This document shows positions 5,447-6,491 of a stretch of DNA of 10,202 nucleotides, piece after piece (position 1 is the first letter of the stretch; the number at the start of each line of letters is the position of its first letter). The stretch comes from a virus (lineage: Duplodnaviria > Heunggongvirae > Uroviricota > Caudoviricetes). The notes under the pieces were generated by a model. The model saw only the letters and a program-made list of their open reading frames with translations. It was not told where the DNA came from and did no database searches. The stretch is from the IMG/VR virus record IMGVR_UViG_2671180921_000016. One strand, written 5' to 3'. A program made the translations under genes and the position numbers.

Positions 5447-5626
5447 GGCACCCCCCCTGACGAATACGGGCGGCGAATACCATCACGCAGCCAGCCGGGG
5501 ATTGCTGGCGTGCTTCCTGTTCGCTGGTGGCCACGATGTGAATCACGCGCGGTTGTGCCGTACTCAGGGCGATAAAACGCCAGATGTATTTATTCAGGTT
5601 GTGCGAGTCCCGCCCTTGCGTGTGTG

Positions 5627-5635
5627 TGGTATGAT
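5627..5635 (+). promoter_or_regulatory. Candidate extended -10 promoter element TGgTATGAT (plus strand)
   Basis: TGG immediately 5' of TATGAT. No convincing -35. Positioned about 45 nt upstream of the hairpin at 5679-5721. Confidence 0.25.
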
Positions 5636-5678
5636 TTAACATAGCTACCTCGATACTATCGTTATCGTTGGTGGTTAG

Positions 5679-5721
5679 ACGCCCTGCATGTGTGCCACCA
5701 CTGCGGGGCGTTGCGTTTTTT
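5679..5721 (+). terminator. Terminator/attenuator-like hairpin (ACGCCCTGCA ... TGCGGGGCGT, 13-nt loop) followed by TGCG then T6, within the divergent control region
   Basis: 10-bp stem with one U-G pair, then a T-tract at 5716-5721. Located upstream of the Arc-like gene, so it is either a leader attenuator or the 3' end of a short RNA. Confidence 0.45.
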
Positions 5722-5722
5722 G

Positions 5723-5781
5723 ATGTACACGTGTTAAGGTGTACACCTAGCGAACCAAAACATAACGCCATAGGTGTACAC
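5723..5781. promoter_or_regulatory. Three copies of the palindromic octamer (G/A)TGTACAC at 5723-5730, 5738-5746 and 5773-5781, the last abutting the ATG of the Arc-like gene
   Basis: Direct reading: GTGTACAC is its own reverse complement. Copy 1 extends into the palindrome ACACGTGT. The third copy overlaps the Shine-Dalgarno/start region at 5772-5784. Confidence 0.5.
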
Positions 5782-5976
5782 ATGTCAACAGTTATTAAGC
5801 GCGATAAAAAACAAAAAGGCACAGGAAAGGCCCCACCATTCCATATGCGTATAGTCCCTGAATTGAAGGAGCAGTTTGATAACGAAGCCAGTAACGATGG
5901 AGTAAGTCTTGCCAACTGGCTTAAAGAGTTGGGGCGCGCTGAACTAAAGCGGCGCGGTATAGAACCCAAAGGTTGA
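5782..5976 (+). CDS. Arc/MetJ-type ribbon-helix-helix DNA-binding protein (64 aa, MSTVIKRDKKQKGTGKAPPFHMRIVPELKEQFDNEASNDGVSLANWLKELGRAELKRRG...)
   Basis: PPFHMRIVPELKEQ...GVSLANWLKEL fits the Arc-like pattern (beta strand then two helices, in the style of xRLPEELKEKL...RSMN). Basic N-terminal arm. Internal start chosen within track ORF 5668-5976. Confidence 0.55.
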   Translation: MSTVIKRDKKQKGTGKAPPFHMRIVPELKEQFDNEASNDGVSLANWLKELGRAELKRRGIEPKG

Positions 5977-5979
5977 TGT

Positions 5980-6105
5980 ATGACTGAAAAGCAGACCGAT
6001 AACAAACTTTCTCTACCAGAGAATAAACCAGCAGGCTTCTTACCAAGAAAAATCCTTGATGAGATCAAACGCCGCCAGCGGCGCAAGGCCAAAGAGCAGG
6101 AGTAA
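5980..6105 (+). CDS. Possible 41-aa basic micro-protein (MTEKQTDNKLSLPENKPAGFLPRKILDEIKRRQRRKAKEQE)
   Basis: ATG 4 nt after the Arc-like stop. Below the track cutoff, found by hand translation. C-terminal KAKEQE tail resembles that of the next ORF. Confidence 0.3.
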   Translation: MTEKQTDNKLSLPENKPAGFLPRKILDEIKRRQRRKAKEQE

Positions 6106-6162
6106 CCATCACCAGCGCCGTGGTGCGGTGAACTGTGGTGCATAGGGTTACAGGTATCTACG

Positions 6163-6360
6163 ATGACTGACAAATCATTAAAGAAATTATCCTCATCCAG
6201 GAAAAAACAACGCAAAAATACGGTAAGCGAACAAGAACAGGAAAGATTTGCGCCATGTGCGTTTGTCCTTGAGAAGTTCTTAAAAGAGTACAGGCGCACA
6301 AAAATGGGATCGCATACTTGGAAAACATCGCAGTATGGTGATGCTAAAGAGCAGGAATAG
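6163..6360 (+). CDS. Possible 65-aa basic small protein (MTDKSLKKLSSSRKKQRKNTVSEQEQERF...GDAKEQE)
   Basis: Track ORF, Lys/Arg-rich. A plus-strand terminator follows at 6462-6491. Confidence 0.35.
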   Translation: MTDKSLKKLSSSRKKQRKNTVSEQEQERFAPCAFVLEKFLKEYRRTKMGSHTWKTSQYGDAKEQE

Positions 6361-6461
6361 CCCACCAGCAAGCCAGCACACTGATCACATTGCCCACCAG
6401 CTGCAAATGTGGCATTGTTGGCAATGCTCATGCGTTGGGGATAACGTGTAGCTTGTGTCGA

Positions 6462-6491
6462 GGGGCCACCGTAGCGGGTGGCCTTTTCTTT
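6462..6491 (+). terminator. Rho-independent terminator (GGCCACC-GTAGCG-GGTGGCC then TTTTCTTT) ending the plus-strand small-gene operon
   Basis: 7-bp GC stem followed by a T-rich tract. A second weaker hairpin plus T5 lies at about 6584-6611. Confidence 0.6.

Follow-up and report, generated by a model that had tools for sequence, protein, structure and literature searches.

A probable immunity and derepression region in a Gram-negative phage satellite: an Arc-like repressor, a predicted antisense RNA and a long stop-free frame in a layout like that of P4 vis-eta/kil

How does a Gram-negative phage satellite keep its replication genes silent, and how might this silence be lifted? The question is raised by a stretch of 10,202 nucleotides (IMG/VR virus record IMGVR_UViG_2671180921_000016; "the window" is this whole stretch), which is a satellite of the Gram-negative phage-inducible chromosomal island (PICI) type from Escherichia coli, integrated beside nfeF. 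In the Gram-negative PICIs, AlpA is the known activator and a global repressor is not evident, and their silencing is an acknowledged gap (PMC6092414), for which the region described here offers a testable repressor candidate. On balance, the segment 5439-6851 is probably an immunity and derepression region laid out like P4 vis-eta/kil, with different repressing parts. A preliminary description of the same DNA had already proposed a genetic switch of a mobile element in this region, and the proposal is now supported by variant-specific repeats around a conserved -35 and by the P4-like layout. The argument is built on gene identities, on the structure and strand of an RNA, on the co-variation of operators and repressors, and on the conservation of an open frame.

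The first step is to establish what separates the replication operon from the repressor gene. About 335 bp of non-coding DNA had been placed there, with the minus-strand operon beginning at 5446; the region in fact holds an Icd-like gene of 67 codons and, because this gene occupies 5439-5642, the operon starts at 5642 and the real gap to the Arc-like start codon is 139 bp. The features that frame this gap on the minus strand are as follows:

5439-5642, minus strand: Icd/Kil-like open reading frame (ORF) of 67 amino acids (NCBIfam NF033153, E=5.5e-20, 71 bits against a cutoff of 25)
5126-5446, minus strand: ORF of 106 amino acids (phrog_15327), apparently translationally coupled to icd, with DUF4222 and a D5-type primase further downstream
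5439-6623, minus strand: eta-like stop-free frame of 394 codons (the bridge frame), which ends as the Icd-like ORF
6633-6851, minus strand: alpA/vis-type helix-turn-helix gene (Pfam HTH_17, E=1.4e-11; TIGR01764 excisionase family, E=1e-9)

The Icd-like annotation of the ORF at 5439-5642 is also present in E. coli genomes. Behind the internal promoter, this icd comes first; it is preceded by a good ribosome-binding site (GAGG), and its stop codon shares bases with the start of the gene that follows (ATGCCTGA, 5446-5439). When phage genomes were searched by tblastn with the Icd-like protein, one record alone was found, the capsid-forming PICI "phage" vB_KppS-Ant; P4 and P1 are beyond the reach of BLAST from this protein, and the NCBIfam profile alone connects them. 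The 139-bp gap itself lies inside the 394-codon frame. Both the Icd/Kil-like gene and this long eta-like frame went unnoticed in the preliminary description, and we consider them essential to the mechanism.

Relatives were retrieved with the single Icd-like protein by a genome-contig scan (8 loci, from different genera) and with a profile of this protein (80 viral contigs and 80 metagenome contigs), the profile providing the bulk of the comparative data. The upstream regions of these relatives are mosaics, in which a nearly invariant stretch of 40 nt by the icd ATG is followed by a hairpin, which has at least six sequence types, and then by a highly variable promoter/repressor module.

The second step concerns the nature of the divergent gene, which is found on the other strand of this module:

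5782-5976, plus strand: Arc-like ribbon-helix-helix repressor gene, 64 amino acids (sequence profile, AlphaFold2 model, Foldseek and PHROG)

The profile of a 24-sequence family matches the P22 Arc chain 1b28_A (MYL mutant) at E=1.5e-4, with query residues 12-59 corresponding to Arc residues 2-49. The AlphaFold2 model of the protein consists of an extended segment followed by helices at 26-38 and 43-57, with a mean predicted local distance difference test score (pLDDT) of 78, and its best Foldseek matches are Arc structures, with a target-normalised template-modelling score of 0.77-0.87 and a probability of 1.0 for 1myl and 1par and a highest score of 0.89 among the Arc structures, while PHROG 228, "Arc-like repressor", is matched at E=9e-6. 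With a strand-helix-helix fold and similarity to a solved member, the repressor belongs to the Arc/MetJ superfamily, as the initial assignment of an Arc-type ribbon-helix-helix gene on the plus strand had it. P22 Arc and Mnt, of immI, provide the best match in both sequence and fold, and are likewise small ribbon-helix-helix proteins with palindromic operators over promoters; however, identity to Arc is only ~25%, Arc has a single 21-bp operator whereas the window has a palindrome of 8-10 bp in three separated copies, and the context is a satellite island in the window but an antirepressor operon in P22.

A small divergent ribbon-helix-helix gene is present in every relative with enough flank (136 of 136), in 44 protein variants that form two classes. 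The class A repressors are YlcI/YnfO-like and start ~190-205 nt from icd, and the class B repressors are Arc-like, the type of the window, with an ATG that overlaps the -35.

The third step is to ask which promoter this protein would repress. The relevant sites of the window are the following:

5723-5730: operator-like site O1, ATGTACAC, with 7 of 8 matches to GTGTACAC
5738-5747: candidate operator O2, GGTGTACACC, a perfect 10-bp palindrome just past the start of the icd promoter transcript, covering the predicted repressor -10 and start
5773-5782: candidate operator O3, GGTGTACACA, in the icd promoter spacer beside the -35, covering the Shine-Dalgarno of the Arc-like gene
5759-5788, minus strand: promoter of the icd/replication operon, with -35 TTGACA (5788-5783), an 18-nt spacer and -10 TATGTT (5764-5759), and a start predicted at ~5752
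5711-5740, plus strand: predicted promoter of the Arc-like gene, TTGCGT, an 18-nt spacer and TGtTAAGGT, opposing the icd promoter

The exact octamer GTGTACAC has only two occurrences in the window, at 5739-5746 and 5774-5781, against 0.10 expected, and two copies are reached in 0 of 200 shuffles. Three copies of a palindromic octamer had been reported; two of them are exact, and the first, at 5723-5730, is ATGTACAC and has one mismatch. The overlap of the last copy with the ribosome-binding site holds, as this copy lies directly against the ATG at 5782 and shares bases with the Shine-Dalgarno AGGTG (5772-5776). These palindromes had been taken as operators that control the Arc-like gene from the non-coding DNA upstream of it; instead, they straddle the leftward icd/replication promoter (TTGACA/TATGTT). 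This is the one good promoter that a consensus scan finds in the gap, its -35 overlaps the Arc-like start codon, and a -35-like hexamer occurs in the equivalent zone in 144 of 147 loci. O1 and O2 cover the predicted rightward promoter of the repressor, whose motif is also present in the class B relatives L011, L014 and L045.

The repeats change along with the N-terminal and beta-strand region of the repressor. Across the 136 loci, nearly every repressor variant has at least three repeats of its own at fixed positions, the middle one of which abuts the conserved TTGAC of the -35, and the variants that share a beta-strand region share the repeat, while differing beta-strand regions go with differing repeats:

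beta-strand PPFHMRI[VA]PEL: repeat GTGTACAC
beta-strand PPYQMRLPEEF: repeat GGTAATTACC
beta-strand SVTARIAHEII: repeat GTGTAAGACAC
beta-strand KLEARVPHAIADA: repeat GTGGCTGACAC
relative L045: operator GTGACCAC

Given that the repeats co-vary with the repressor variant, they would be the operators of the repressor, and the repressed promoter would be the icd/replication promoter. Leaving binding assays aside, this co-variation is the strongest available evidence for the proposed operators, and the adjacent Arc-like protein very probably has its operators in the palindromes.

The same sites may also be read in another way, in which the Arc-like protein is an antitoxin-like autoregulator of a small cargo operon and the palindromes control the plus-strand operon only. 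The name given to the relatives by NCBI, "HicB family antitoxin", is in line with this, as is a weak match to Pfam HicB, but this match scores 16.5 bits against a cutoff of 21 and is confined to the ribbon-helix-helix part; the 64 amino acids leave no space for the HicB N-terminal domain, no HicA-like ORF lies nearby, and HicB was rejected as the identity of the protein. It is also true that O1 and O2 overlap the predicted repressor promoter, and that the genes downstream of the repressor vary as they do in accessory modules. Nevertheless, elements in which the downstream gene differs or is absent retain the repressor and the operators, in the same place on the icd promoter, and one operator always abuts the -35 of that promoter, which makes an autoregulator restricted to its own operon very unlikely and favors the Arc-like protein as the repressor of replication.

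In the coliphages 186 and P2, the promoters of the switch are arranged face to face, and the predicted repressor and icd promoters of the window face each other in the same manner, with starts a few bases apart and the operators between them. However, the face-to-face layout is limited to the class of the window, given that the class A relatives have back-to-back promoters, and the repressor of 186/P2 is of another family.

A repressor on the promoter is only one of the repressing parts. Between this promoter and the icd start codon, the plus strand presents a second candidate:

5641-5721, plus strand: predicted cis-antisense RNA of ~80 nt (folding, covariation and covariance model)
5642-5677, plus strand: hairpin 1, with an anti-Shine-Dalgarno in the stem and a hypervariable 7-nt loop
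5678-5712, plus strand: hairpin 2, followed by a U-run (TTTTTT, 5716-5721)
5627-5635, plus strand: predicted extended -10 of the antisense RNA, TGgTATGAT, within icd codons 3-5 (a putative promoter)

Two hairpins form in the fold of the plus strand of 5636-5725 (-36.4 kcal/mol, z=-4.4), and the predicted RNA is an exact complement of the leader, ribosome-binding site and start codon of icd. The structure was tested over 27 pairs in 32 distinct sequences from at least eight genera, in which 94.6% of the cells are paired and 13 of the 27 pairs change on both sides, a result that 0 of 500 shuffles reach, whereas pairing drops to 34-52% in controls with slid partners; hairpin 1 alone is 97.9% paired. 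The cells that are not Watson-Crick are G·U on the plus strand (A·C on the icd-sense strand) in 118 cases, against 3 of the reverse, and the pairing on the icd-sense strand is 80.9%, against the 94.6% of the plus strand. The mean folding energy is -35.4 kcal/mol for the plus strand and -23.2 kcal/mol for the sense strand, the plus strand being the more stable in 32 of 32 sequences. This strand asymmetry is the decisive point for the predicted plus-strand RNA.

It is also the point on which the opposite proposal fails, namely, that the conserved hairpins act in the sense leader of the icd mRNA, as a 5' stabilizer or a protein-binding site, rather than in an antisense RNA. The sense strand does beat shuffled sequence (-39 kcal/mol for 126 nt, z=-3.4), and both strands usually fold in cis-antisense systems, but a function of the hairpins in the sense strand was rejected on the count of 118 G·U on one strand against 3 on the other, and the lower pairing of that strand and its lower stability in all 32 sequences point the same way. 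We therefore hold a sense-leader function to be extremely improbable, and keep to a predicted RNA of the plus strand.

The putative promoter of this RNA is placed ~7 bases upstream of hairpin 1, and its TGn and TAnnnT are present in 139 of 139 E. coli-type loci, with the hexamer TATGAT in 130, TATAAT in 6, and TATGCT, TATAGT and TATTAT in 1 each. The rare changes of Icd residues (H to Y or N) give TATAAT, TATAGT or TATTAT, that is, the hexamer is kept or improved. With the covariance model of the antisense RNA, each element yields exactly one copy, which is antisense to icd in every case; the model finds none in P4, and matches L170 (LR881103, "Escherichia phage vB_KppS-Ant") at 8907-8988 with 53.7 bits.

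A hairpin with a T-tract upstream of the Arc-like gene had been noticed from the outset, and it is confirmed by the plus-strand hairpin at 5678-5712 and the TTTTTT at 5716-5721. Of the two roles offered for it, the short RNA fits better and the attenuator less well. In the latter case, hairpin and T-run would merely be a plus-strand terminator or attenuator that meters stray antisense transcription before the Arc-like gene, with no discrete RNA, and this is consistent with the position of the hairpin upstream of that gene and on the same strand, with a predicted repressor -35 that overlaps the hairpin tail, and with a strand specificity that suits any plus-strand RNA hairpin. However, a terminator would not account for an extended -10 that is conserved ~7 nt before hairpin 1 in all 139 loci and survives the amino-acid changes of icd, nor for a hairpin 1 that co-varies (97.9% paired) and contains a sequence exactly complementary to the ribosome-binding site of icd. 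Furthermore, in class A the icd promoter and the repressor's own -10 lie between the hairpin and the repressor gene and, because these intervene, the hairpin cannot be a simple leader attenuator in that class. An attenuator without a discrete RNA is thus unlikely, and the short antisense RNA is the reading that is carried forward here.

In a search of Rfam with the whole window at E<=1 and with 5560-5800 at E<=10, no C4, isrK or other credible family was found. The weak matches to MIR395, mir-6302 and a Streptomyces sRNA (15 bits against a gathering score of 41) were set aside as chance.

Within a stretch of ~60 nt that is otherwise invariant (59 distinct sequences), the only hypervariable positions are 5656-5663, in the loop of hairpin 1, and 5636-5639, in icd codon 2, and the loop occurs in at least ten versions, which always have 7 nt. 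A hypervariable recognition loop is typical of cis-antisense RNAs, and these positions could be the specificity determinants of the antisense RNA.

The FinP/FinO system of the F-like plasmids is similar in that an antisense RNA of ~80 nt, which forms two stem-loops, is complementary to the ribosome-binding site and leader of an operon's first gene, although the antisense RNAs themselves have no sequence relation. The island of the window also encodes a ProQ/FinO-family protein and, given that proteins of this family stabilize cis-antisense RNAs with terminator hairpins in F-like plasmids, this protein may act on the predicted RNA by analogy.

The fourth step is the passage from alpA to the replication genes, across everything described so far. 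The 394-codon bridge frame runs antisense to two ORFs of 65 and 41 amino acids and to the Arc-like gene, and continues over the operator sites, the two promoters and the hairpins of the RNA; it also crosses the terminator of the repressor operon:

6460-6491, plus strand: intrinsic terminator of the repressor operon, GGCCACC..GGTGGCC followed by TTTTCTTT, one-directional, with a fold of -22.6 kcal/mol

A consensus terminator scan flagged neither this terminator nor the hairpin of the antisense RNA, both of which were established by folding, and the consensus scan of 5000-7000 found no minus-strand terminator-like site.

The bridge frame starts 10 nt past the alpA stop TAA (6635-6633), where the Shine-Dalgarno GGGGGAG is followed by an ATG, a strong ribosome-binding site (TAAGGGGGAGCGATG) that has the same context in the relatives. 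Upstream of icd, its frame stays open over a median of 750 nt in 129 relatives, compared with 3 and 21 nt for the two alternative frames. Ten spacings (127 to 205) separate the ATG of the repressor from that of icd, and they are 1 mod 3 in ~40 of the 43 variants; 40 of 43 repressor genes are stop-free in the antisense frame of the bridge, against 2.7 and 3.9 stops in the other two frames. In the phase of the bridge, the third codon positions of both strands coincide. The conserved N-terminal peptide of the frame (HKTKATGGGRQW) is the antisense reading of the repressor operon terminator, and no Pfam domain was detected in the frame outside the Icd part; because of these two facts, selection appears to act on the open frame and not on the protein sequence.

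The absence of a domain and the antisense origin of the N-terminal peptide would equally be expected of an accidental shadow ORF, in which case Icd would be translated only from its own ATG and the read-through from alpA would be independent of translation. Two further facts are in line with this possibility: ~48% of the repressor genes would stay stop-free after synonymous-codon shuffling, and the Prokaryotic Genome Annotation Pipeline (PGAP) annotates the short Icd-like gene only. However, ~109 of the 129 loci are open through unrelated mosaic modules, promoter DNA and RNA hairpins, while the other frames close within 3 and 21 nt, and the changes in spacing are multiples of three. The strong ribosome-binding site after the stop of the upstream gene also speaks against an accident, as do a frame that stays open even through a C4/isrK insert in the relative EC12 (described below) and the same arrangement in P4, where it has been experimentally characterized. 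A shadow ORF is accordingly judged decidedly unlikely, and a translated bridge remains the preferred reading of the frame.

In L034, L038, L159 and similar relatives, repressor and icd are spaced by 197 or 200 nt, values that are not 1 mod 3, and the antisense frame over the repressor is stop-free but out of the icd phase, with a stop 105-126 nt upstream of icd; the bridge frame of this type is either broken or frame-shifted. In L170 (LR881103), a 16.5-kb record that is a capsid-forming PICI, the depositors annotated the eta-like frame at 8200-9174 as one hypothetical protein of 325 amino acids.

The fifth step is to compare these parts with the systems that they recall. In P4, a constitutive promoter lies inside eta, its transcripts are terminated via CI/seqA interactions, and Kil is a truncated Eta (PMC10111431, summarizing Forti et al. 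1999). The full-length Eta protein is produced only from the late promoter upstream, in translational coupling with the alpA homologue, and its translation blocks termination, with the result that the late transcript reads through (PMC10111431). The P4 Kil matches NF033153 at E=1.6e-21 with 76 bits, and a profile comparison of P4 Kil with the Icd family of the window gives a probability of 87% and E=4e-6. In the P4 sequence, a frame of 214 codons at 8168-8812 starts within the end of vis, ends as the 65-residue Kil, and contains the CI RNA (Rfam C4, 74.9 bits) and seqA (isrK, 60.8 bits).

The window shares with the P4 immunity region (PLL-vis-eta/kil, PLE, seqA, CI RNA, timm) the gene order and a Kil/Icd ORF of ~65 amino acids that heads the primase operon, and it has an alpA/vis-type gene followed by a long frame that starts by its end, ends as the Kil/Icd-family ORF nested in it, and holds an internal promoter and a predicted RNA gene. 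The resemblance to P4 had been called a loose one; the vis-eta/kil layout makes it closer than that, but the hairpin is no P4-type device, since the window has neither C4 nor isrK, though the same Rfam search finds both in P4. The C4-family RNA (CI) and the isrK-family site (seqA) being undetected in the window by Rfam, direct membership in the P4 or P1 families of RNA immunity was rejected. The repressor of P4 is a processed RNA of the same strand (C4 family) that acts on seqA/seqC (isrK family), whereas the window has, inside the long frame, a protein repressor gene on the opposite strand, operators and a predicted opposite-strand RNA; no such antisense gene is annotated in P4.

In the immI region of P1, blocking icd translation via the c4 RNA shuts off the downstream genes. 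The c4-icd-ant region of P1/P7 is like the window in that the start of the next gene is overlapped by a small Icd-family leader ORF, whose ribosome-binding site is the proposed antisense target. It differs in that c4 is trans-acting and processed from the same transcript, whereas the RNA of the window is encoded in cis on the other strand, with no Rfam C4 match, and in that the genes downstream of icd in the window are replication genes (phrog_15327, DUF4222 and D5 primase) and not an antirepressor. By this analogy, the system would resemble P4 immunity and P1 immI in controlling the translation of the Icd/Kil leader, with a translated override from the alpA/vis transcript.

One relative combines both kinds of immunity module. 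EC12 (L001, NZ_CP070229) is the nearest complete-genome relative of the window, with 99% identity and 411 extra bases, and these 411 bp carry Rfam C4 (75.9 bits) and isrK (68.8 bits), both absent from the window. The module (locus 6359-6754, inserted at ~5502-5522 of the window) lies between a truncated and a complete copy of icd, in one open frame, directly downstream of the same Arc-like/antisense-RNA module, and neither C4 nor isrK was found in the 18 other loci tested. It looks as if the window were a recombination product of the two icd copies, or EC12 an insertion product. Because EC12 carries both, the two kinds of immunity module would be interchangeable, and even stackable, before the Icd/Kil ORF.

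Given these parts, a mechanism may be proposed, in which the places where transcription starts, the binding of the protein, the dependence on Rho, the coupling and the trigger are all inferred. In the quiescent state, the Arc-like protein, made from its own promoter, would bind the GGTGTACACC-type operators and shut off both the icd/replication promoter and its own promoter, in a form of autoregulation. As a second layer, the ~80-nt RNA, transcribed on the opposite strand from inside the icd start, would pair with the icd leader and block its translation, and the untranslated icd transcript would then undergo Rho-dependent termination before the coupled 106-residue ORF, DUF4222 and the primase. 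Such a block of icd translation would parallel that of the P4 CI RNA on kil and of the P1 c4 RNA on icd.

In the induced state, by analogy with PLL and eta of P4, transcription would pass alpA and continue leftward, given that the repressor terminator is one-directional. Ribosomes would enter at the site 10 nt past the alpA stop and translate the 394-codon frame over the control region and into icd, and this translation of the bridge may keep RNA polymerase and ribosome coupled, which would override both layers of repression. The leftward transcription would also run head-on into the repressor operon.

A more general proposal, which we put forward as tentative, is that of a widespread satellite switch in which the repressor operon is nested wholly antisense inside a stop-free bridge. 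An Arc/YlcI repressor and an antisense RNA would hold the switch off, and an AlpA-driven translated bridge would override both, oppose the repressor operon and supply ribosomes to the replication genes, while the RNA loop and the operators would form two independent specificity codes against the cross-repression of co-resident satellites.

Several points weigh against these proposals. Every functional step rests on sequence, and the repressor promoter falls below the threshold of the consensus scan. Many of the relatives are closely related, and because of this the shuffle-based significance of the RNA structure overstates independence. A T-run of at least four is present in only 13 of the 32 distinct relatives (six T in the window), and termination may thus be inefficient, or not the sole role of hairpin 2. 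With regard to the bridge frame, the open frame is shorter in ~20 of the 129 loci, the phase of icd is not kept by three repressor variants, and the stop-free property derives in part from the amino-acid make-up of the repressor (the protein of the window has no tyrosine) and not from codon choice alone. In addition, the published work on Gram-negative PICIs found that AlpA acts as an activator and reported no repressor (PMC6092414), and the model island EcCICFT073 was not located in the two regions of CFT073 examined (1.395-1.489 Mb).

The island of the window nevertheless has the composition of the Gram-negative PICIs of the EcCICFT073 type, with int, the alpA activator gene, a D5-type primase, PerC, ProQ and SSB, the Arc/YlcI-type gene and the antisense RNA being the parts that the searchable papers do not mention. 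A survey of 2023 mentions only RNAs of the C4/isrK type in the zone after alpA (PMC10111431). Literature searches, whose coverage is incomplete so that a prior description is possible, returned no account of the Arc/YlcI gene, the antisense RNA or the antisense overlap.

Phage-inducible islands of the Gram-negative type occur commonly in Enterobacterales and mobilize genes for virulence and defense, and the switch, if true, would be their missing maintenance mechanism. The candidate parts are an Arc-type repressor with operators on the replication promoter, an antisense RNA that is structured and has no family in Rfam, and a translated bridge like that of P4, by which the override by AlpA might be explained. 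The operator and loop variants would provide natural orthogonal parts for synthetic circuits and possible markers of the immunity types of satellites. The locus also presents a conserved pair of genes (~1 kb) in complete overlap on opposite strands, and neither the RNA nor the long frame is picked up by genome annotation.

Downstream of the repressor, the plus-strand operon holds two further ORFs:

5980-6105, plus strand: ORF of 41 amino acids, with a C-terminus of 14 residues, EIKRRQRRKAKEQE, that is the same as in class A repressors
6163-6360, plus strand: basic protein of 65 amino acids (phrog_21027, E=3.6e-45), a cargo co-transcribed with the repressor

These had been described as two tiny basic ORFs; the first is probably a remnant of a repressor gene, and the second belongs to a conserved family, phrog_21027, found downstream of the repressor in ~100 loci. 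The similarity of the DNA to class A elements resumes at ~6061, and the 41-residue ORF is probably the leftover 3' end of a YlcI/YnfO-type repressor gene, from a module swap that placed a class B repressor ahead of a class A tail. The slot 3' of the repressor (5980-6360 in the window; also L011, L045, L076 and L084) varies among otherwise similar elements, and may contain a basic protein of 59-65 amino acids (phrog_21027), a predicted membrane protein of 174-176 or 147 amino acids, a protein of 118 amino acids, or none. It looks like an accessory or defense slot co-expressed with the repressor.

The remaining genes of the island conform to a Gram-negative PICI, with int, alpA and primase mostly in one direction and an island of ~10-20 kb, and 1513 of 5426 complete genomes match part of the region:

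7694-9124, minus strand: tyrosine integrase of the satellite island
also on the minus strand: ORF of 241 amino acids
3006-4838, minus strand: D5-type primase
1452-1976, minus strand: ProQ/FinO-family RNA-binding protein, as annotated in the 99% relative
elsewhere on the island, minus strand: SSB and PerC accessory genes

Other structured sequences were observed outside of the control region. An imperfect long inverted repeat at 2823-2930 (minus strand), between the primase gene and an ORF of 81 amino acids, is rich in GTGAACAG/CTGTTCAC words and gives rise to the chance MIR395 match; it may represent a replication origin or iterons. The Rfam int-alpA RNA (RF02996) was not detected in the window at E<=1, and is present with 49.8 bits upstream of alpA in an element of Escherichia ruysiae (L002, 153-221, plus strand). 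Finally, a strong GC-rich hairpin followed by a T-run at 9353-9397 (plus strand), between the integrase end of the island and nfeF, is the source of the chance mir-6302 match and is probably a terminator at the island boundary.

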